Shown: in pieces, positions 14,470 through 58,492 of the stretch | Layout of the letters: each line of letters starts with the position of its first letter | Numbering within the stretch: the stretch's first letter is position 1 | Source: a bacterium | GTDB lineage: Bacteria > UBA8248 | Length of the DNA: 64,000 nucleotides | Direction of reading: 5' to 3' | Assembly (NCBI GenBank): GCA_965221165.1 | Contig: CBDCRP010000002.1 | Span: forward strand, 1,120,001-1,184,000 | Translations under genes and position numbers: made by a program | The notes under the pieces: generated by a model | What the model saw: the letters and a program-made list of their open reading frames with translations, nothing else | Told to the model about the DNA's origin: nothing | Databases searched by the model: none

Positions 14470-15762
14470 TTGACGCATGAAACTCGCGAGCAGAGGATCC
14501 GCCGTATCAAGGAGAAGTTAAGCCGGGACCGCGGCCGGCCCAACGATGGCGTTCTCTTCGGGGTGGAGGTGGACCCCGATTATTTCGAGGCGTTCTCCCA
14601 GGTGGGCTGGGGCTTCTTCAATCGGGATAAGCCCCGCCATGTGCCCGAAAAGATGCGGGCGATTCTCGCCGCGATCGTCACATGCTCGGTCCTCTGGAAG
14701 AAGGATCCAACGGAACCTGGCGCTACACTCCACTGCGAGAGGGCGCTGGAGCATGGCGCCACCATGGAGGAGATTTTGGAGGCGTTCGAGGTTGCCGGCT
14801 TCGCGGGGGGACACCCGCTTCTCCTGATGGGCCTGAGAGTTCTCAAGGAAATCGCCGGCAAAAAGGGCGGACTGAAAGAGCCCGGGAACGGGTTAGAGAG
14901 TCCACGCGCTGGAGCCTCCTCGGAGACTCGCGAGGAAAGGGTCCGCCGCATTACCGAGAAGATGGATCGGGACCGGGGCTATACCGACGAGGCCCTAGGC
15001 TTTGGCGCCCGACTGGACCCGGATTACTTCGAACCGTACTCCGAGATAGGCTGGGGCTTCTTCAATCCGGATAGACCTCGCCACCTGCCCCAGAAGAATC
15101 GGGAAATCATCGCCGTCGTCGTCGTGGCTCTCAGGGGGAGCGAGGAGGACGCCTACCACCACTGCAAAAGGGCGCTCCAGCATGGCTCCACCATGGAGGA
15201 AGTCCTGGAGGCGTTCGAGGTGAGTGGCCTCCCCGGGGGAACTCCGCACCTACTGAGGGGCCTGAGGATCCTCAAACGGATTGCCGACGAAGGGGGAGGA
15301 CTGAAAGATCCAATTGGTGGGCCTGGGGGCCCTCGCGGAAAAAGAATCCGCCGTATCACCGAGAAGATGAGCCGGGACCAAGGCCGGATCGACGAGGCCC
15401 TAGGCTTTGGCGCCCGACTGGACCCGGATTACTTCGAACCGTACTCCGAGATAGGCTGGGGCTTCTTCAATCCGGACAAGCCCGGCCGCTTCTTGCCCCA
15501 CAAGACGCGCGAAACAATTGCCGCGGCCCTGATGGCCTTCAGGACGGACGAGGAGGGCGTCGCCATCCACTGCAAGAGGGCGCTGGAGTACGGCGCCACC
15601 ATCGAAGAAATGGTAGAGGTGTTCGAAGTGTGTCTCGTCCCCGCGGGAGCCGGGGCCCAATTATTTGGGCTGAGGGCCCTTAAGCGCATCGTTGAGAGGG
15701 CGGGTGCGTCATGTGATGGAGGTTCTTGGATGAGTGAGCTGAAAGAGGAGGTTCTTGAATGA
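14470..15762 (+). CDS. Three-repeat carboxymuconolactone decarboxylase (CMD/AhpD)-family protein
   Basis: Three ~135 aa repeats, each with DPDYFE...GWGFFN...K.R...HC[EK]RAL.[HY]G.T.EE..E.FEV. Confidence 0.8.
   Translation: MTHETREQRIRRIKEKLSRDRGRPNDGVLFGVEVDPDYFEAFSQVGWGFFNRDKPRHVPEKMRAILAAIVTCSVLWKKDPTEPGATLHCERALEHGATMEEILEAFEVAGFAGGHPLLLMGLRVLKEIAGKKGGLKEPGNGLESPRAGASSETREERVRRITEKMDRDRGYTDEALGFGARLDPDYFEPYSEIGWGFFNPDRPRHLPQKNREIIAVVVVALRGSEEDAYHHCKRALQHGSTMEEVLEAFEVSGLPGGTPHLLRGLRILKRIADEGGGLKDPIGGPGGPRGKRIRRITEKMSRDQGRIDEALGFGARLDPDYFEPYSEIGWGFFNPDKPGRFLPHKTRETIAAALMAFRTDEEGVAIHCKRALEYGATIEEMVEVFEVCLVPAGAGAQLFGLRALKRIVERAGASCDGGSWMSELKEEVLE
14985..15476 (+). repeat. 87 bp identical direct repeat inside the CMD gene (14985-15071 and 15390-15476)
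   Basis: CGACGAGGCCCTAGGC...TTCAATCCGGA occurs twice, offset 405 bp. Confidence 0.9.
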
Positions 15763-15775
15763 GCGAGCTGAAAGA
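15718..15775 (+). repeat. 29 bp tandem duplication of RBS plus start codon region
   Basis: GGAGGTTCTTGGATGAGTGAGCTGAAAGA and GGAGGTTCTTGAATGAGCGAGCTGAAAGA, 2 mismatches. Confidence 0.9.
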
Positions 15776-16409
15776 GCCCATCGTGGTGGTGAAGTATTCC
15801 GATTTCACCTGACCCTACTGCTATGTGGCCACCGTCGGTGGAATCCCGATTCTGGAGCAGGATCCGGACGTGGAGGTCGAGTGGGTGAGCTGGGAGGGAA
15901 GGCCGCCCGGCGCCCCGTTCAAGTCCTTCACGCCGGAGGAGCGGCAGGAAGTCTACCAGAAGGTGCACAAGCCCCTAGCGGACAAGTACGGAGTGGATAT
16001 CATCGTCGTCTCAAAGAACAGCTACCGCACCACGAACGCCCACATGACCTCCTTCTACGCCCGGGACATGGGCAAGTTCGTGGGGTTCCGGGACCGGGTG
16101 TACCAGGCCCTCTGGGTGGACAACCTCGACCTGGAGAGCCCCGACGTGCTCGCCCGGCTCGGGGAGGATGTGGGCCTCGACGGGGATGAGATCCGGAAGG
16201 TGATCGAGGAGAAGCGCTACTTCGGCGCGCTCCAGAGCCAGCGCGCCCAGGGAAAGAGTCTCGGGATCTTCGGCATCCCCTGCTTCGTGGTGGAGGGCAA
16301 GATATTCTGGGGAAAAGACGTGATCGACGATCTAAAAGAGGAGGTCGCGCGGCTGAAAAAAGAGAAGCTCGCCGAGCAGGTAAAAGAGGAATGGGGCTGT
16401 CCTAGCTAA
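15759..16409 (+). CDS. DsbA/FrnE-like thioredoxin-fold protein with in-frame TGA; probable selenoprotein (UxxC)
   Basis: ATG 15759 (GGAGG RBS, ATGA overlap with the CMD stop) reads MSELKEPIVVVKYSDFT-TGA(15810-12)-PYCYVATV... in frame with ORF 15825-16409, which carries the cis-Pro loop GIFGIPCFVV..FWG. Confidence 0.85.
15829..15841 (+). promoter_or_regulatory. SECIS-like hairpin downstream of the UGA
   Basis: CCACC-GTC-GGTGG, with loop GU 22-23 nt after the UGA. Confidence 0.55.
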
Positions 16410-45659: not shown

Positions 45660-45923
45660 TATCTTAACGGCTTTTCGAAAGAATGCCCGGAAAGAAGGGC
45701 TTTCGTCGCCCGAGACCGTGCGTTCGGTCTTTCGCACCATAGGTCATGCGTTATGTATGACAACCGCTGTTTTTGCCCTGGGTTTCATGGCTTTCGCCGC
45801 ATGGGATTGACAAATAACAGGGCGCTCGGCCTCCTGTTCGGGATAACGATTGTTATCGCGCTCCTGGCCGATTTTCTGCTTCTGCCGACCCTGCTGATGG
45901 CCATCGACCGGAGGGAACCATGA
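45660..45923 (+). pseudogene. 3' remnant of a third MMPL paralog
   Basis: Frameshifted ETVRSVFRTIGHAL...ALGLLFGITIVIALLADFLLLPTLLMAIDRREP, overlapping the next ATG. Confidence 0.75.
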
Positions 45924-46738
45924 TGCGCGCTCGTCTCGCCCGCTCGATTCTCCCGCTTCTCGCGCTTTGCGCGCTTATTCTGGTCCACCTGCCCGCCCCG
46001 CCGAGCGCCGAGGGCGCGACGCCCGAGGAAAAAGGGCTCCGGATCGCGCGCGAGACCCGCGAGAAAGCGAAAGGCTTCGGGAATTTCACGGCCGAGCAGA
46101 GCATGGCGCTGCGCAACAAGCACGGGCAGGAGAGCCGGCGCCGGCTCCGCGTGAAGGTGCTCGAGACGGACGGAGGAGGCAACAAGAGCCTGTTCGTCTT
46201 CGACCGCCCGCGCGACGTCAAGGGCACCGCGCTCCTCGTCCACACCCACAAGAAGAAGAACGACGACCAATGGCTCTTCCTGCCCGCTCTCAAACGGGTC
46301 AAGCGCATCAGTTCGTCGAACCAGTCCGGCTCCTTCATGGGAAGCGAATTCGCCTATGAGGACATGGGCACCCGGGAGGTGGAGAAATACACCTACCGCT
46401 ACCTGCGAGAGGAGCCTTGCGGCAAGCTGACGTGTACGGTCGTCGAACGCTTCCCGGTGAGCAAGAGGTCGGGCTACCGGCGCCAGATCGTCTGGCAGGA
46501 CAAGGGCGAGCTTCGCGCCTGGAAGGTGTGGTACTACGACCGTAAGAACGCTCACCTGAAGACGCTCACGCTGGGGAAATACAAGCAGTATCTGGGCAAG
46601 TACTGGCAGGCCGGCGAAATGAAGATGGTGAACCACCTGACGGGCAAGAGCACCGTGCTGCGCTGGAAGGACTACAAGTTCCGCACCAGACTCAAAGACC
46701 GCGACTTCACACGGACCGGGCTGAAACGGGTGCGCTGA
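45920..46738 (+). CDS. LolA-like outer membrane lipoprotein-sorting family protein, copy 1
   Basis: Signal peptide; P.DVKGTALL, DDQWLFLPALKRVKRI, SFMGSEFAYED. Confidence 0.88.
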   Translation: MMRARLARSILPLLALCALILVHLPAPPSAEGATPEEKGLRIARETREKAKGFGNFTAEQSMALRNKHGQESRRRLRVKVLETDGGGNKSLFVFDRPRDVKGTALLVHTHKKKNDDQWLFLPALKRVKRISSSNQSGSFMGSEFAYEDMGTREVEKYTYRYLREEPCGKLTCTVVERFPVSKRSGYRRQIVWQDKGELRAWKVWYYDRKNAHLKTLTLGKYKQYLGKYWQAGEMKMVNHLTGKSTVLRWKDYKFRTRLKDRDFTRTGLKRVR

Positions 46739-47994
46739 TGCCGCTGCGCGCCGCCCTTCACCGCACGGTGCTCTTCGCCGTCTTGATATCGGCCGTGCTC
46801 CTTCTCACCGGGGCGAGCCACGGGGCCGAAAGCATCGAGCACGAAATTTCCGGCAGCCTGGACCTCGAGAGCCGGTGGTATCCCCAAAAAGGCGCTCATG
46901 CCGAACAGCGCGCACACGCGAGCGGTTTCGTCGCGGAGCCGAAACTCCATCTCAAAGGCGAGGGCGACTGGAGTCTCACGATCGCGCCGTTTTTTCGCTA
47001 CGACGGGGCGGACTCGCGCCGCACCCACGCCGATTTGCGCGAAGCCTACTTTCTGGCGTTCGGTGAAATCGGCGACGGGGAATGGGAGCTCCGCCTGGGC
47101 GTGGACCGCGTGTTCTGGGGAGTCACCGAATCGCAACACTTGGTCGACATCATCAACCAGACCGACTTAGTCGAGCATCCGAACAAAGAAAGCAAACTGG
47201 GCCAACCCATGGCCCACCTCACCTGGTCGGCGGAGTGGGGCATCCTGGAATTCTTCACCCTGACCTATCACCGCGCGCGCATCTTCCCGGGCCGCCATGG
47301 CCGTCTGCGCTCCTCGATTCTCATAGACGACGAGCACGTTTCATACGAAAGCGCCGCCGGGGAATGGCGCATGGACCTCGCCGCCCGCTACAGCCACAGC
47401 TTCGGACCTTTCGACATTGGCCTGAGCGTATTCGACGGCACCAGCCGGGAGCCTTTTTTCATGCCGCACATGGACTCTCGCGGCGCGGTGACCTTAAGCC
47501 AGCACTACGAGCAGATCCGCCAGTTCAGCGTGGACGCACAGCTTACCGTGGAGTCCTGGTTGTTCAAACTCGAGGCCCTTCAGCGCGAAGGCGCCCGAAA
47601 TCTCCTGGGCGTGAAAGAGGACTACACCGCTTTCGTCATGGGCGGCGAATACACCTTCAACTCCATCTGGGGCTCGGCCGCCGACCTCGGCCTGCTCGCC
47701 GAATGGAATTACGACGAGCGGGGACTGCGTTCGACCAATGAATTCCAGAACGACCTCTTTTTCGCCGTTCGCCTGGCGCTGAACGACACCCAGAGCACGG
47801 AAATCATCGCCGGCGTTCTCGCGGACGCGGATCATACCACGCGCACCCTGAACATCGAATTGAGACGCCGCCTCTCGGACCGGTGGTCTCTGAAGCTCGA
47901 GGCGCTCGCTCTCATGGACGTCGACGAAGAGGACACCGTCTATGAGACTCGGCGAGACAGCTTCTTGGCGCTGAACGTGACGTACAATTTCTAG
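46738..47994 (+). CDS. Probable outer-membrane beta-barrel protein
   Basis: Signal peptide, amphipathic strand pattern (DLREAY, VFWGVTES..LVDIINQ), and a C-terminal beta-signal VTYNF. Confidence 0.75.
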   Translation: MPLRAALHRTVLFAVLISAVLLLTGASHGAESIEHEISGSLDLESRWYPQKGAHAEQRAHASGFVAEPKLHLKGEGDWSLTIAPFFRYDGADSRRTHADLREAYFLAFGEIGDGEWELRLGVDRVFWGVTESQHLVDIINQTDLVEHPNKESKLGQPMAHLTWSAEWGILEFFTLTYHRARIFPGRHGRLRSSILIDDEHVSYESAAGEWRMDLAARYSHSFGPFDIGLSVFDGTSREPFFMPHMDSRGAVTLSQHYEQIRQFSVDAQLTVESWLFKLEALQREGARNLLGVKEDYTAFVMGGEYTFNSIWGSAADLGLLAEWNYDERGLRSTNEFQNDLFFAVRLALNDTQSTEIIAGVLADADHTTRTLNIELRRRLSDRWSLKLEALALMDVDEEDTVYETRRDSFLALNVTYNF

Positions 47995-49702: not shown

Positions 49703-52000
49703 GTGACGACTCTCGTGCCATTGGACCGCTATATAGACGCCATTCTGCGCCATCGGTGGCTGGTCGTCGCGCTCGCCACGCTGCTCATGCTGATCACGGC
49801 GGGGGGCGGGCGCTTCATCAAGACCACGAACGATTACCGCATCATGTTCGGCGAAAACAATCCGCAACTCGCCGCTTTCAACGCGCTCGAGAACACCTTC
49901 TCCACGTCCGACACGGCGCTCATCGCCATCGCGCCCCGAAAAGGATCGGTGTTCACCAAAGAGGCGCTCGGCGCCATCGAGGATCTGACCGATGCCGCGT
50001 GGAAAACGCCGCATTCCAGCCGGGTCGACTCCCTCACCAACTATTCCCACAGCCGGGCGGAGGGGGATGATCTGATCGTCGAGCCGCTCGTAGACGACGC
50101 GAGCGCGCTTACAGACGCCGACCTCGGGCGAATCGGGAAAATCGCGCTCGGCGCAAGCGAAATCGCCGGGCGCCTCGTCTCCCGCGATGGACGCGTGGGA
50201 GCTCTGGCCGTCACTTTCATCCTGCCTGACAACCTAGACGCCGCGGTGATCGAGATAAACGACTATCTGAACGCCGTTTTGAAGGTGGCGCGCGCGAAAC
50301 ATCCGGACATCGCCTATTACCTGACCGGCGACGTCGTCATGCACCGCGCCTTCTCCGACGCCACGAAAGACGATCTCGAAATCCTCACGCCGATCGTGTT
50401 CGTCATCATCGTAGCCACCACCATACTCCTCCTGCGATCCGTGCTCGGCACCTTGTCCATCATCATCGCGCTCGTGTTCATCGTCATGAACACCATGGGG
50501 GTCGCAGGCTGGCTCGGCACGGTGTTCAGCCCCGCCAATTCCGGCGTACCGATCATTATTATGGCGGTCTCCGTCGCCCATTCGGTCCATATCGTCACGG
50601 CCACGCTGATGGGCATGGGCAATGGTCTGGACAGGAACGCGGCGATCGCGGAATCGTTTCGAGAGAACGTCTGGCCCGTGTTCCTGACCTCGATCACGAC
50701 CATGATCGGATTTTTGAGCCTGAACGCCTCGGATTCGCCGCCTTTTCACGTCCTCGGCAATTTCGTGGCGTTCGGCGTGCTGTGCGCCTTCGTCTACTCC
50801 ATGACGCTTCTGCCGGCATTGCTTTCCATCCTGCCGCTGCGCGCGCCTCGCCGCCGCGCCGAGGGGTCCGGCTTTTTCGATCGCTTCGGCACTTTCGTCG
50901 TCGAGCGCCGCACGCCTCTGCTCTGGTTCGTCGCCATTCTGACGATTGTTCTCATCAGCGGCATTCCCCGCAACGAGTTGACCGACAGATGGGCGCACTA
51001 TTTCGACGAGCGCTACGAGTTCCGGCGCGATACGGATTTCGTCATCAAAAACCTGACCGGCGTGGATTCGCTGGAATACGCGCTGAAAGCGGGACGCGAA
51101 GGCGGCATCACCGACCCCGCATACCTAAAAAAAGTCGACGCCTTCGCAGAATGGTACAGGAAGCAGCCCCAAGTGAGCCACGTCCGGGCCTTCCCGGACA
51201 TCATGAAGCGCCTGAACAAGAACATGCACGGGGATAATCCGAAATTCTACCGGATACCGGACAACCCCAGACTCGCCGCGCAATACCTGTTGCTCTATGA
51301 ATTCTCGCTTCCCTTCGGCAGCGACTTGAACAACCGCATCGACGTCGCCAAATCCACGACGAGGATGAGCGTCGTGGTCCGCAGCATATCCTCCCGGGAC
51401 CACCGCGATCTCGACGCGCGCGCCCAAGCCTGGCTCCGCGCCAACATACCCGAATTCGCTACCGAAGCTTCGGGCATCAGCATGATCTTCGCCCACCTTT
51501 CCCAACGAAACATCCACAGCATGCTGCGCGGCACGATTATCGCCATGGCCCTTATTTCGTTCATTTTGATACTGGTTTTCAAAAGCGTTCGCCTGGGCCT
51601 CATCAGCCTCGTGCCCAACTTCATTCCCGCCGCCATGAGCTTCGGCCTGTGGGGTCATCTGGTCGGCCGGGTAGGTATCGCCTCCTCGGTCGTCGTCGCC
51701 ATCGCCTTCGGGATCATCGTGGACGACACGATTCATTTTCTAAGCAAATATCTGAAATGCCGCCGTGAGGAGGGTCTCTCCCCGCCTGATGCAGTACGCG
51801 CCACCTTCAACACCGTAGGTCATGCGCTGTGGACTACGACCGCGGTTTTATCGTTGGGCTTTCTGGTGTTTGCTTTCTCGGGATTCGAACTCAGTTGGTC
51901 ACTCGGCCTTCTGGTCGGGATCACGCTCGTCTTCGCGCTCCTGGCCGATTTTCTGCTTCTGCCGACCCTGCTGATGGCCATCGACCGGAGGGAACCATGA
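49703..52000 (+). CDS. MMPL/RND-superfamily transporter, copy 2
   Basis: Close paralog of 43158-45449, with the same motifs. Confidence 0.92.
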   Translation: MTTLVPLDRYIDAILRHRWLVVALATLLMLITAGGGRFIKTTNDYRIMFGENNPQLAAFNALENTFSTSDTALIAIAPRKGSVFTKEALGAIEDLTDAAWKTPHSSRVDSLTNYSHSRAEGDDLIVEPLVDDASALTDADLGRIGKIALGASEIAGRLVSRDGRVGALAVTFILPDNLDAAVIEINDYLNAVLKVARAKHPDIAYYLTGDVVMHRAFSDATKDDLEILTPIVFVIIVATTILLLRSVLGTLSIIIALVFIVMNTMGVAGWLGTVFSPANSGVPIIIMAVSVAHSVHIVTATLMGMGNGLDRNAAIAESFRENVWPVFLTSITTMIGFLSLNASDSPPFHVLGNFVAFGVLCAFVYSMTLLPALLSILPLRAPRRRAEGSGFFDRFGTFVVERRTPLLWFVAILTIVLISGIPRNELTDRWAHYFDERYEFRRDTDFVIKNLTGVDSLEYALKAGREGGITDPAYLKKVDAFAEWYRKQPQVSHVRAFPDIMKRLNKNMHGDNPKFYRIPDNPRLAAQYLLLYEFSLPFGSDLNNRIDVAKSTTRMSVVVRSISSRDHRDLDARAQAWLRANIPEFATEASGISMIFAHLSQRNIHSMLRGTIIAMALISFILILVFKSVRLGLISLVPNFIPAAMSFGLWGHLVGRVGIASSVVVAIAFGIIVDDTIHFLSKYLKCRREEGLSPPDAVRATFNTVGHALWTTTAVLSLGFLVFAFSGFELSWSLGLLVGITLVFALLADFLLLPTLLMAIDRREP

Positions 52001-52815
52001 TGCGCGCTCGTCTCGCCCGCTCGATTCTCCCGCTTCTCGCGCTTTGCGCGCTTATTCTGGTCCACCTGCCCGCCCCGCCGAGCGCCGAGGGCGCGACGCC
52101 CGAGGAAAAAGGGCTCCGGATCGCGCGCGAGACCCGCGAGAAAGCGAAAGGCTTCGGGAATTTCACGGCCGAGCAGAGCATGGCGCTGCGCAACAAGCAC
52201 GGGCAGGAGAGCCGGCGCCGGCTCCGCGTGAAGGTGCTCGAGACGGACGGAGGAGGCAACAAGAGCCTGTTCGTCTTCGACCGCCCGCGCGACGTCAAGG
52301 GCACCGCGCTCCTCGTCCACACCCACAAGAAGAAGAACGACGACCAATGGCTCTTCCTGCCCGCTCTCAAACGGGTCAAGCGCATCAGTTCGTCGAACCA
52401 GTCCGGCTCCTTCATGGGAAGCGAATTCGCCTATGAGGACATGGGCACCCGGGAGGTGGAGAAATACACCTACCGCTACCTGCGAGAGGAGCCTTGCGGC
52501 AAGCTGACGTGTACGGTCGTCGAACGCTTCCCGGTGAGCAAGAGGTCGGGCTACCGGCGCCAGATCGTCTGGCAGGACAAGGGCGAGCTTCGCGCCTGGA
52601 AGGTGTGGTACTACGACCGTAAGAACGCTCACCTGAAGACGCTCACGCTGGGGAAATACAAGCAGTATCTGGGCAAGTACTGGCAGGCCGGCGAAATGAA
52701 GATGGTGAACCACCTGACGGGCAAGAGCACCGTGCTGCGCTGGAAGGACTACAAGTTCCGCACCAGACTCAAAGACCGCGACTTCACACGGACCGGGCTG
52801 AAACGGGTGCGCTGA
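51997..52815 (+). CDS. LolA-like protein, copy 2
   Basis: Protein identical to 45920-46738. Confidence 0.88.
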   Translation: MMRARLARSILPLLALCALILVHLPAPPSAEGATPEEKGLRIARETREKAKGFGNFTAEQSMALRNKHGQESRRRLRVKVLETDGGGNKSLFVFDRPRDVKGTALLVHTHKKKNDDQWLFLPALKRVKRISSSNQSGSFMGSEFAYEDMGTREVEKYTYRYLREEPCGKLTCTVVERFPVSKRSGYRRQIVWQDKGELRAWKVWYYDRKNAHLKTLTLGKYKQYLGKYWQAGEMKMVNHLTGKSTVLRWKDYKFRTRLKDRDFTRTGLKRVR

Positions 52816-52878
52816 TGCCGCTGCGCGCCGCCCTTCACCGCACGATGCTCTTCGCCGCCTCGATATCGGCCGTGCTCC
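52815..52878 (+). pseudogene. 5' stub of a second beta-barrel gene copy
   Basis: MPLRAALHRTMLFAASISAVL, then similarity stops before the convergent Xdh-family gene. Confidence 0.75.
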
Positions 52879-55220: not shown

Positions 55221-55560
55221 GCCATACTCCCGGATGAAAAGGTGAATTCGAACAAACCGAAAACGATGAATGAGCCGTCAATCTACATGCTCGGGCGGCT
55301 CTTGTCCACGAAATCGGGGGTTCAGCGTCCGAGGCTTTCCCCTCCGATCGTCTGAACTGGATTGGCTCTTTCCGACCGGTCGGGAATGATACATGATGGG
55401 GTAACCCTTAAATGAGGGGCGCACAATCCCTCCCTCCCCGGTCGGGAAACCGCAATCGCTCCTTCATCAGTCGCGATTGACCCCGCATTTGCCGTGGCGG
55501 GATAAGGAGAGAGCGCGGGTATGGTGGCGCGGCGAGCCGCTTCGTTCGGCGTCGGGGGAA

Positions 55561-55620
55561 TATCTAAAAAAAAGTGAAAATAGGGGAAAAATAGGAAAAA
55601 TATCTGAAAATATCCGAAAA
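55561..55620. other. Six A-tracts phased at 10 bp (candidate intrinsically curved DNA)
   Basis: tatctAAAAA aaagtgAAAA taggggAAAA ataggAAAAA tatctgAAAA tatccgAAAA. Confidence 0.6.
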
Positions 55621-55830
55621 TTTAACCTTTTGATATATATATGGTTATGCGCAAATTTCCCCCTTTGGAGGCGCTATGGGGGGGCTATCCCCTGCGAAGG
55701 GAAGGCCTTTCGCCGCGAAAAGGGATTTCTGAAAGATATGAGAAAAATTCGATAATTTGACGATGTTTTCCTGAAAATTTTTTCGACCGATTCATGCCTC
55801 ATCACGCGCTCGGGCAGAGGAGTCCAGACG

Positions 55831-56502
55831 ATGGAGAAACAAGAAAATTCGGCGCGTTCGCTTTTCCCTGAATTCCCGCAAGTCGTTGAACTGTTTGCGC
55901 AAGAAACCGGCGGCCTGCCCGAGGAAATATTGGAGAGAGTCAGAGAGGAGAAGAGTTGGGGCTTGTGGTCCATTCGTGATCAGGTGAGCCACATGGCCTC
56001 CCTGCCCTATCGATGGCTGCTGATTCGCTGGGGGGACATCCTCTTCGGCGACCATCTGCCGCGTGACAAAGAATTGCTTGAGAGGTTCGATGGACGAATG
56101 ATGAAAAACGAATATTATCCCCAAGTCCAAGATCTTATCGACGCCATGCGGGATTCGTTCGCCCTCGCCTGGGAGGTGCTTGGCTCGGAATCGCCCGAAT
56201 CGATTCGGGATGAGCGAAAGATTTCCGAGCGCGTGCCACGGGGCATGATACGGCCCGGAACCGGTGAGGATGTCCGCAAATGGCGTGAAAACATCACTCT
56301 CAAGGCGCATCGAAACGGCGTATGGATTGACCCGGACGACACGGAGCTATTTCATTTCAACCTGGAATACACGTTTCGCCACATGCTCTGGGAGGCGTAT
56401 GCACATCTAAAAACAATCCAGATGCACAAAAAAGAGGAAAACATGGAACCGCTCATCCAGGTTCCGCAAGGGGGTTACGTCTCCGTGTTGAGGTGGGACT
56501 GA
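55831..56502 (+). CDS. DinB/YfiT-superfamily protein
   Basis: WSIRDQVSHM and C-terminal HMLWEAYAHL His motifs. Confidence 0.65.
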   Translation: MEKQENSARSLFPEFPQVVELFAQETGGLPEEILERVREEKSWGLWSIRDQVSHMASLPYRWLLIRWGDILFGDHLPRDKELLERFDGRMMKNEYYPQVQDLIDAMRDSFALAWEVLGSESPESIRDERKISERVPRGMIRPGTGEDVRKWRENITLKAHRNGVWIDPDDTELFHFNLEYTFRHMLWEAYAHLKTIQMHKKEENMEPLIQVPQGGYVSVLRWD

Positions 56503-56568
56503 TACCCATATAAATCATAATTTACGAGAATAAACCATTTTCGTCCAAACCTTGGGAGACAAACAAAC

Positions 56569-57138
56569 ATGGTGGAAAGTCCAAATTACCCCTGGCATGA
56601 GAGCACCGTGCCTGGCGAGAGACCGATCGATAAACCCGAGCTTCCGAAAGACGGTTATGAAATCACCATGCTCGCAAAGACGGAGACGATGGACGATGGA
56701 CAACTGAAAATCGGGCGATTCCGGCATTTTGAAGTTTTTAGCGACGAACCGCCCCGCATCGGAGGAGAGGACAGGTATCCGCAACCTCTCACATACATCG
56801 CCATGGGGGTTGGTTTCTGACTGTTGACCCAGCTTGGGCGGTACGCCCATATGACGAAAACTACTTTCGAGAAAGCCACCTGCCTCGTCGAATTCGATTA
56901 TTTTCTGAAAGGCTCCGTTCTCAGGGGCGACGTAAATTCAGGGTGCAGAAGGGTGCGTACACATTTCAAGGTGGAATCGAGCGAACCAAAAGAACAAATC
57001 CTGCATATCATCCAATTGGCGAAACAAGGCTGCTACGCCGAGCAAATGGTTCAAACGGCGGTTCCGCTCACGAGCACTGTTGAACTAAACGGAAAAAATA
57101 TCGAATTGAAGGGGATTACAAATTCAGACAACCGCTAA
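56569..57138 (+). CDS. OsmC/Ohr-family peroxiredoxin-like protein with in-frame TGA; probable selenoprotein
   Basis: SDEPPRIGGEDRYPQPLTYIAMGVGF-TGA(56818-20)-LLTQLGRYA...AKQGCYAEQ. The two track ORFs are in one frame, separated only by the TGA at the first catalytic Cys position. Confidence 0.88.
56835..56849 (+). promoter_or_regulatory. SECIS-like hairpin downstream of the UGA
   Basis: TGGGCG-GTA-CGCCCA, with loop GU 21-22 nt after the UGA. Confidence 0.65.
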
Positions 57139-57209
57139 CGGATAGTCCCGCCAGTTGAAGCCGGGACACTGACGCAAACTAATTTATTGACCAAGCCTAT
57201 TCCTCTTGA

Positions 57210-57285
<76 letters not shown>

Positions 57286-57478
57286 AGTATGTGGAACAAT
57301 CCTCAAACAACCAAGGATTGTTCCTTATCGGCCCATTTCCCTGAAAGGCAAGTATTTCCATGCCTTTACCGGAAAGACAGGGATTCTAAAACGCTCTATC
57401 TCGGGCGTCAACATTGAAACGCATTGCGCTCTCGATATCCGGCTTGATGTTGCTGAATCCCCCAATTATTGTAAGAGA

Positions 57479-58492
57479 ATGACGAATAAATCTTCATTCC
57501 CCGTGGGTAAACTTCCGCCGGACGTGCTGGACACTTTACTCAAAAACGCGAATCCTCACCCGCGCCTCATCGTTGGTCCACAGGTTGGAGAAGACGCAGC
57601 CGTTATCGATATGGGAGAGTGTTATCTCGTCGCGAAATCAGACCCTATTACGTTTGTCGAAAACGGCATAGGGCGCTATGCAGTTCACGTGAACGCAAAC
57701 GATATCGCTTGTATGGGCGCTATCCCTCTATGGTTTCTGATGACTCTGCTCCTGCCGGAAGGACGCACCAACGAGGCGATAATAAACCGCATTTGGAAAG
57801 ATGTGGGAGATACTTGCGCCGATTTGGGCATCACCTTATGCGGTGGACATACGGAGATTACATCGGGATTGGAATTTCCGATTCTTTCGGGCCATATGTT
57901 GGGGGAAGTATCCAAGGAGAATTTGATACGAGGCGCGGACGCTTGTACGGATGACTTGATTCTGCTTACGCGCCCCATACCTGTTGAAGGAACTGCGATC
58001 CTGGCGGATGCAAAATACGATTTTCTGAAAAGCATCATGGATATCGAGATACTGGAGAATGCAAAAAGATATCTGGTTTCTCCCGGCATCAGTATAGTGT
58101 CGCAAGCTCTGGCGGCAGCCGGAACAGGCCGCGTGCACGCGATGCACGACCCGACCGAGGGCGGTCTCGCCACAGGAATTCACGAATTGGCGGAAGCCGC
58201 AGGCTTGGGGGCAATCGTGGAGGAGAGTCAAATCCCCATCTCTTTTGAAGGGGAAAAGATTTGCGAAGCATTGGGACTCGACCCCTTGGGCGTCATTACA
58301 TCGGGAGCGCTTTTGTTGGCGGTTCCGGCAGAAGGAGAAGAAATCGTGCGGGAAACGCTCATAGCGACGGGCGCGATGGGTGTTCGTATCGGCAAATTAT
58401 GCCCGCCTGAATCTGGTGTGATGATTCAACGCGGCGGGAAAACCTCTCCGCTTCAACGATTTGATTCCGATGAAATTTCAAAAGCGCTGTGA
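57479..58492 (+). CDS. AIR synthase-related (PurM/HypE superfamily) protein
   Basis: GKLP, GEDAAVID, SDPITF, NANDIA, GGHTE, MHDPTEGG. Confidence 0.85.
   Translation: MTNKSSFPVGKLPPDVLDTLLKNANPHPRLIVGPQVGEDAAVIDMGECYLVAKSDPITFVENGIGRYAVHVNANDIACMGAIPLWFLMTLLLPEGRTNEAIINRIWKDVGDTCADLGITLCGGHTEITSGLEFPILSGHMLGEVSKENLIRGADACTDDLILLTRPIPVEGTAILADAKYDFLKSIMDIEILENAKRYLVSPGISIVSQALAAAGTGRVHAMHDPTEGGLATGIHELAEAAGLGAIVEESQIPISFEGEKICEALGLDPLGVITSGALLLAVPAEGEEIVRETLIATGAMGVRIGKLCPPESGVMIQRGGKTSPLQRFDSDEISKAL

Follow-up and report, generated by a model that had tools for sequence, protein, structure and literature searches.

The locus at positions 56569-57138 on the forward strand of the DNA analysed here raises the question of whether two short open reading frames (ORFs) are in fact one gene, in which an in-frame TGA specifies selenocysteine (Sec) rather than the end of translation. 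The whole stretch of DNA, hereafter the window, is 64,000 nucleotides long and corresponds to C2:1120001-1184000 of the source genome (G000), a metagenome-assembled genome (MAG) of the bacterial lineage UBA8248 (GCA_965221165.1; C2 is contig CBDCRP010000002.1). We conclude that the locus holds a single intact gene, encoding a redox protein of 189 residues with an OsmC fold that belongs to family NF041052, and we place at about 0.93 the probability that the UGA at codon 84 encodes Sec, making this a genuine Sec-encoding gene. Real Sec recoding at a Cys position had been proposed for this locus in an earlier note, and the Sec machinery of the genome, the alignment with Cys and a covarying hairpin all agree with that proposal. 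The features on which the argument depends are listed here.

56554-56559, forward strand: Shine-Dalgarno-like GGGAGA, 9 nt before the ATG, read from the sequence and with a presumed role.
56569-57138, forward strand: OsmC-related selenoprotein gene, 189 sense codons if the TGA encodes Sec, with its TAA stop codon at 57136-57138.
56818-56820, forward strand: in-frame TGA, predicted to be Sec84, which takes the place of the first conserved cysteine of OsmC proteins and opens the motif U-L-L-T (UxxT).
56835-56849, forward strand: selenocysteine insertion sequence (SECIS)-type hairpin, TGGGCG/CGCCCA with loop GTA, a 6-bp stem assigned by energy and covariation.
57031-57033, forward strand: TGC for Cys155 of QGCY, at the resolving position, which is that of the second OsmC cysteine, assigned by alignment with family genes and structures.

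The ATG at 56569 opens an ORF of 83 codons that ends at the TGA at 56818-56820, and the same frame runs on to the TAA. The TGA stands in the context GVGF-[TGA]-LLTQ and is followed by CTG and then by a TTG at 56824, which is the start of a 104-aa ORF. The ORF list made with translation table 11 consequently holds two same-frame pieces, one of 83 aa (56569-56820) and one of 104 aa (56824-57138). That these are a single 189-codon frame split by one TGA, as the earlier note claimed, can be seen directly in the nucleotides. The two separate entries under table 11 are what would be expected if the UGA simply terminates translation, so that an 83-residue fragment is made, perhaps alongside a 104-residue product with its own start at the TTG at 56824; read-through is here a prediction from sequence. 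The family assignment of the read-through protein bears on this alternative, as does the conservation of the frame in relatives.

When the TGA is read as Sec, the protein matches the NCBIfam model NF041052, "OsmC-related (seleno)protein", with 159.9 bits against a cut-off of 95 (E 3.6e-47). The match covers residues 44-175 of the protein and profile positions 13-144 of 144, and leaves an N-terminal extension of ~40 residues outside the model. The Pfam OsmC domain (PF02566) is found at residues 66-168 with 42.7 bits against a cut-off of 27.5. Both domains span the TGA, which argues against termination, as does the fact that either half alone would amount to half an OsmC fold. An AlphaFold model, built on an alignment of public homologues, has a mean predicted local distance difference test (pLDDT) score of 82.6. 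Foldseek found 54 PDB matches to it at E ≤ 0.001 (best E 3.6e-07, probability 1.00), and the matches listed are all OsmC/Ohr-family, OsmC-like or structural-genomics entries. Their TM-scores, normalised to the query, are only 0.34-0.53, as is to be expected when a member of a family of domain-swapped dimers is modelled as a monomer; sequence identity to the matches is 11-20%.

The earlier note had placed the TGA at the first OsmC Cys and had the second Cys retained in QGCY, and alignment supports both statements. With phmmer, residue 84 aligns with the first conserved Cys in all three matched PDB chains (3cje_A, 2opl_A and 2onf_A); Cys155, encoded by the TGC at 57031-57033, has its counterpart in the second Cys of two of them, 3cje_A and 2onf_A. 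A collection of 5.8 billion proteins yielded 10 homologues, nine of which cover site 84; eight of these have Cys there and one has Trp. The Cys-containing homologues are single full-length proteins, a further point against termination at the UGA. The homologue with Trp at the Sec position, P0010, also has a divergent C-terminus, and its gene call apparently read a TGA as Trp and then diverged. A third catalytic Cys was considered at position 105, which is an invariant Cys in the 10 public homologues, but it was rejected, since only 26 of 72 family genes have Cys at this position.

Conservation of the TGA was assessed in a sample of 41 genomes, made up of the source genome and 40 relatives. NF041052 is present in 31 of the 41. 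Every match above the cut-off contains exactly one TGA (100 of 100), as against none of the three sub-cut-off matches. The source genome itself has three genes above the cut-off, whose single TGAs each stand in GF-U-LLTQ, and two further, more distant OsmC-fold genes with a TGA at that position. Most of the genus has three NF041052 paralogues in each genome. We retrieved 72 of the 100 genes for alignment, leaving out 28. In all 72, which share between 32% and 100% identity with the window protein, the TGA stands at the aligned site. Each of them also has T or S at residue 87 and Cys at residue 155, and the protein sequence 3' of the TGA is conserved. The related loci belong to MAGs labelled Nitrospinota or Nitrospinaceae, with some labelled Candidatus Tectomicrobia and some, at 54-60% identity, Dehalococcoidia or SAR202.

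The retention of the TGA together with its downstream frame in 72 of 72 genes, some of them as distant as 32% identity, is not what termination predicts, and together with the spanning domains and the full-length Cys homologues it makes termination a very improbable explanation. A broken gene, or a Cys codon misread in sequencing or assembly, is a different matter: TGC and TGT are each one substitution away from TGA, and the source is a MAG. That the same TGA recurs in 100 of 100 matches from 31 genomes, most members of the genus having three paralogues each, effectively refutes pseudogenisation or error, to which we attach almost no probability; the protein sequence beyond the TGA, moreover, has remained conserved.

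Sec insertion in bacteria would require a SECIS-type hairpin close behind the UGA. The perfect 6-bp stem described in the earlier note is present at 56835-56849, with TGGGCG at 56835-56840, GTA at 56841-56843 and CGCCCA at 56844-56849. The stem begins 14 nt past the TGA, 20 nt separate the TGA from the loop, and the loop occupies nt 21-23. A G-C pair closes the GUA loop, and the hairpin has an energy of -8.6 kcal/mol. According to a 2026 review (PMC13188914), the bacterial SECIS (bSECIS) consensus has a loop of 3-9 nt with G within its two leading positions, followed by G or U, a stem of 4-16 bp, a distance of 16-37 nt from the UGA and a minimum free energy ≤ -7.5 kcal/mol. The window hairpin fits all of these limits, having a 3-nt GUA loop that contains the G, a 6-bp stem, a distance of 20 nt and an energy of -8.6 kcal/mol. 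A scan of the whole window at Rfam gathering thresholds detected only a tRNA-Phe, with no curated RNA family covering the hairpin.

Covariation was analysed in the 45 nt from the TGA on, in a gap-free alignment of 55 distinct homologous sequences; the helix, which pairs columns 18-23 with columns 27-32, was defined from one of these sequences. Standard pairs occupy 95.8% of the 330 cells (55 sequences), and changes on both sides are seen in five of the six stem pairs, amounting to 72 cells. The covariation score is 0.520, compared with 0.160 in column shuffles, and none of 500 shuffles reaches the observed value. Sliding the 3' partner by 1-3 columns reduces the score to ≤ 0.113 and the proportion of paired cells to 17-61%. 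The stem variants include UGGGCG/CGCCCA, UGCGCG/CGCGCA, GAAGCG/CGCUUC, GAGGCA/UGCCUC and CUCGCG/CGCGAG. In several of the compensations one arm changes an amino acid and the other changes only synonymously, as where a Gly/Ala codon difference on the 5' side is matched on the 3' side by a switch between Ala codons; constraint on the protein can hardly account for these by itself. In the loop, G24 and U25 (alignment columns) are invariant in the 55 sequences; in E. coli fdhF the loop G and U contact SelB. The hairpin has thus been kept, with compensatory changes, among the TGA-containing homologues.

The genome was then searched for the Sec machinery, for which the earlier note had suggested looking. 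All four components scored above their curated or gathering cut-offs.

C3:1580000-1581385: selA, 564.2 bits against a cut-off of 267.9.
C3:1582325-1584211: selB, 383.8 bits against a cut-off of 242.25, ~0.9 kb from selA.
C2, the window's contig: selD, 329.8 bits against a cut-off of 125, carrying one in-frame TGA.
C2:1080614-1080706: tRNA-Sec, 75.9 bits against a cut-off of 47; called by ARAGORN as tRNA-SeC with anticodon TCA.

The Sec machinery of the source genome is complete, and its tRNA-Sec gene shares the window's contig, where it precedes the window by ~40 kb. Two outcomes that the earlier note named as refuting recoding, a genome devoid of tRNA-Sec or SelB and a hairpin not conserved among TGA-containing orthologues, are thus contradicted by the sequences. 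Among ORFs ≥ 300 aa, 1050 of 2416 end in TGA, more than in any other stop codon, and therefore the codon has not been reassigned throughout the genome. This bears on the possibility that the UGA is read as Trp, Cys, Gly or Arg instead of Sec, either through near-cognate decoding or in a reassigned code, for which the prediction of public homologue P0010 with W at this position could be cited. Against it stand not only the use of TGA as an ordinary stop but also the complete Sec machinery, the covarying SECIS-type hairpin at a canonical distance, and the location of the codon at a catalytic Cys position. We consider decoding as a standard amino acid no more probable than termination, that is, very unlikely.

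Standard bacterial Sec insertion is very probably the correct reading and is the best supported; from it we infer incorporation of selenium and binding of SelB. In such a mechanism, the SECIS-type hairpin would recruit SelB-GTP-Sec-tRNA(Sec) when the UGA occupies the A site, and Sec insertion would outcompete release factor 2. By analogy with the OsmC/Ohr thiol peroxidases, Sec84 could have the peroxidatic role, attacking a hydroperoxide or another oxidised substrate to form a selenenic acid. Cys155 could then, by the same analogy, resolve the selenenic acid to a selenenylsulfide, which a dithiol donor would reduce. OsmC and Ohr, as described in PMC8945050, have two Cys that form an intramolecular disulfide after hydroperoxide reduction, and are recycled by lipoyl-dependent systems or by AhpD. 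Whether the window protein would likewise be a hydroperoxide reductase is, on this analogy, an even bet.

Several considerations weigh against this interpretation, some of them touching the recoding and others the peroxidase activity. Selenium in the protein and SelB binding are deduced from the sequence rather than from direct evidence. Part of the hairpin's conservation is due to protein constraint, since the hairpin lies inside the coding sequence, and the counts of conserved genes come from phylogenetically close relatives and so lack independence. The genome, a MAG, has an estimated contamination of 8.47%, although the window, tRNA-Sec and selD are on one contig. With regard to peroxidase activity, no OsmC or Ohr equivalog or subfamily model matches the protein, NF041052 being the sole NCBIfam match at E ≤ 0.01. 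COG1765, the group in which OsmC-like selenoproteins have been placed, is presumably the YhfA-type branch of the OsmC superfamily. YhfA-type proteins keep both Cys, lack the catalytic Arg and Glu, and are biochemically uncharacterised, according to PMC8945050. Finally, one paralogue of the window gene lies beside a Sec-containing gene of sulfurtransferase type, which hints at sulfur rather than peroxide chemistry.

The window contains a second TGA-containing gene, which the earlier note had compared with the OsmC-like gene.

15759-16409, forward strand: DsbA-like selenoprotein gene, with its TGA at 15810-15812 (codon 18) in FT-U-PYC; Pfam DSBA, 93.4 bits.

Its hairpin, CCACC-GTC-GGTGG, is at 15829-15841, and the loop starts 21 nt after the TGA. 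Both recoded genes of the window therefore have a short stem with a GUN loop 21-23 nt past the UGA, as the earlier note had observed. In the source genome as a whole, six of the eight DSBA matches found with Pfam contain a TGA, and in a seventh (C3:257361-257993) a UxxC motif comes immediately ahead of the region that matches. As a control for chance we used the 1050 ordinary TGA stops of ORFs ≥ 300 aa in the source genome. The strict form of the pattern (stem ≥ 5 bp, GUN triloop starting 19-23 nt downstream) occurs at one of the 1050, whereas any bSECIS-like hairpin of ≤ -7.5 kcal/mol at 16-37 nt occurs at 63 (6%).

The genome was scanned for in-frame TGAs with coding-like flanks, using a codon log-odds model trained on 1140 ORFs ≥ 400 aa, and followed by an uninterrupted stem ≥ 5 bp with a loop of 3-9 nt containing G in its first two positions, at 13-37 nt and ≤ -5 kcal/mol. 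This gave 104 candidates, of which 15 were dropped for combining a negative upstream coding score with the absence of Cys within 3 residues. The remaining 89 were read with TGA as U and scanned against NCBIfam, and 25 of them also against Pfam. In 50 of the 89 the best stretch of a family match spans the U; most of the other 39 are frames extended too far at the N-terminus or pairs of neighbouring genes. The 50 include AhpD/YciW-like proteins with CxxU, the UGSC family (8), and proteins of deiodinase-like (3), DsbA-like (4), OsmC-fold (4), rhodanese or MST (3), GrdB-family reductase B (2) and DUF442/TIGR01244 (2) types, in addition to Grx-like, ArsC-like, SelW-like, Ogt, DsrE-like and Trx/Prx/ResA-like proteins and SelD. 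The scan missed four TGA genes, namely one OsmC paralogue, whose stem is bulged, and three DSBA genes. We put the selenoproteome of the source genome at no fewer than 54 TGA-containing genes, a rough census that is a lower bound.

Two families among the 50 were unexpected, a crotonase and a CoA-transferase, neither of which looks like a redox protein; in both the TGA falls inside the domain. The CoA-transferase subunit (C2:359235-360158, forward strand) matches PF01144 over residues 38-255 and has U134 followed by a 9-bp stem of -13.9 kcal/mol. The crotonase (C2:1289978-1290706, reverse strand) matches PF00378 over residues 9-215 and has U60 in GAVF-U-AG with a strong downstream hairpin. These two genes could be new selenoprotein forms or broken genes.

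The loops of the 50 supported genes are GUA, GUU, GUC, GUG, GGC, GGG, GGA, GGUC, AGGU and others, at 14-37 nt, and only 13 of the 50 have a strict GUN triloop starting 19-23 nt past the TGA. The GUN triloop is therefore a subset of the general bacterial consensus and not a SECIS pattern of the lineage, contrary to what the earlier note had suggested; it is highly specific, yet a search with it would pick up no more than about one in four of these genes. The same note had anticipated a larger unannotated selenoproteome. In size this expectation was borne out (at least 54 genes), but it does not stand as something new, because BSepDB already lists 48-54 genes for MAGs with the label that the relatives bear.

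The genes around the OsmC-like gene were considered for clues to its function.

55831-56502, forward strand: upstream neighbour of 223 aa, DinB-superfamily-like, separated from the OsmC-like gene by 66 nt.
57210-57285, reverse strand: tRNA-Phe, between the OsmC-like gene and the AIR-synthase-family gene.
57281-58492, forward strand: AIR-synthase-family protein (PF00586 and PF02769), below the HypE, SelD and ThiL cut-offs.

The 223-aa upstream gene has no match in Pfam or NCBIfam. Its nearest ESM Atlas clusters are named "DinB superfamily" (score 0.96, 218 of 256 features), which we treat as a lead only. The gene is found upstream of the orthologue in all 21 genus loci (orthologue ≥ 84% identity) and is possibly co-transcribed with the OsmC-like gene. 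A scan of 55400-57400 detected no terminator-like sites, and promoter-like sites occurred at chance level, so that it was uninformative about transcription units. On the other side, the AIR-synthase-family gene adjoins the orthologue in 19 of the 21 genus loci and in none of 42 other loci, and is thus absent around the paralogues. It scores 107 against a cut-off of 252 for HypE and 89.5 against 125 for SelD, and it is also under the cut-off for ThiL. We rejected it as a SelD-like partner, and its adjacency as a sign of linkage, on account of these scores, the presence of the true selD elsewhere, the intervening tRNA-Phe on the opposite strand, and an adjacency confined to the genus. The listed GTG start of this gene overlaps tRNA-Phe, and its true start is probably later.

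At some distance from this locus, the window has near-identical translations at ~45850-46750 and ~51820-52830 (forward strand), covering the C-terminal end of a resistance-nodulation-division (RND)-type transporter and the following frame. This suggests that a segment of roughly 0.7-1 kb has been duplicated, the copies being ~6 kb apart.

The neighbourhood of another paralogue invites a different reading of function. The second NF041052 paralogue of the source genome, at C3:1702305-1702730, is followed 47 nt downstream by a PF04273/TIGR01244 gene, one of two in this genome.

C3:1702777-1703235, forward strand: PF04273/TIGR01244 gene (DUF442, protein-tyrosine-phosphatase-like C-x5-R sulfurtransferase), with a TGA in VH-U-KxxGRAG.
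C3:689741-690187, reverse strand: second PF04273/TIGR01244 (DUF442) gene, with a TGA at the active-site Cys, in VH-U-KxxGRAG.

Matches of the DUF442 type contain a TGA in 47 of 48 cases, from 25 of the 41 genomes, and the exception is a 44-residue fragment at a contig end. An NF041052 paralogue lies ≤ 240 nt upstream of a DUF442-type gene on the same strand in the source genome and in 19 of 22 genus-mates; of the exceptions, one has a spacing of 734 nt, one of ~6.9 kb, and one genome has no listed paralogue. A selenoprotein family of the DUF442 type was not found in the main texts of PMC13188914 or of the BSepDB paper (PMC13326102). From this pairing one might suppose that the NF041052 proteins of the lineage are not peroxidases at all but selenium-based partners in a sulfur or persulfide relay, a proposal that we regard as unlikely. 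Were it true, the window copy, which follows a gene for a DinB-like putative thiol transferase, would form part of a thiol/sulfur-transfer network rewired from Cys to Sec, in a bacterium with at least 54 selenoprotein genes.

Leaving the relay aside and returning to Sec insertion at codon 84, the finding is correct but already known: the family, its motif, the type of SECIS and the existence of selenium-rich MAGs with the relatives' label have all been published or are covered by curated models. A 2005 paper described OsmC-like selenoproteins with UxxT from the Sargasso Sea metagenome, giving 3 sequences, an assignment to COG1765 and a SECIS figure (PMC1088965). The 2026 review also lists them, and states that most such selenoprotein families remain uncharacterised (PMC13188914). 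BSepDB (2026) gives, in its Table 2, three MAGs of GTDB UBA8248, under the labels Nitrospinota, Nitrospinaceae or Nitrospinae, that have 54, 50 and 48 selenoprotein genes and are among the ten selenoprotein-richest bacteria (PMC13326102); one BSepDB-listed MAG holds an orthologue 76% identical to the window gene. Given the family published in 2005, the curated NF041052 model and the BSepDB listing, the locus is therefore not a discovery. Our search of the literature available to us found no biochemical characterisation of any OsmC-like selenoprotein.

The locus establishes no new principle, and its residual value lies in annotation and in the DUF442-type TGA gene family. Gene callers that use table 11 split the gene into pieces of 83 and 104 aa or drop it, and do likewise with ~50 other genes in this genome. 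A correct reading alters the redox picture of the organism, which has Sec-containing AhpD-like, UGSC, DsbA-like, OsmC-like, deiodinase-like, rhodanese and GrdB-family genes.

The window gene can be set beside several known systems. In comparison with the prototype bSECIS, as represented by E. coli fdhF and the bSECISearch model, its hairpin is short and minimal and lacks the bulged U. The OsmC/Ohr thiol peroxidases (E. coli OsmC, 1qwi and 1nye; P. aeruginosa Ohr, 1n2f) have the same fold and two redox residues at the same positions, but the window protein has Sec for the first Cys, no equivalog match, and only 11-20% identity to them. A relation to the YhfA branch would presuppose a link between YhfA and COG1765. 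The 2005 paper files the OsmC-like selenoproteins in COG1765 (PMC1088965). With the OsmC-like selenoproteins themselves (Zhang, Fomenko & Gladyshev 2005, PMC1088965; NF041052) it shares the fold, the UxxT motif, Sec at the first Cys and a SECIS directly downstream. From the NF041052 family it differs in no essential respect, being one of three paralogues and having an N-terminal extension of ~40 residues.

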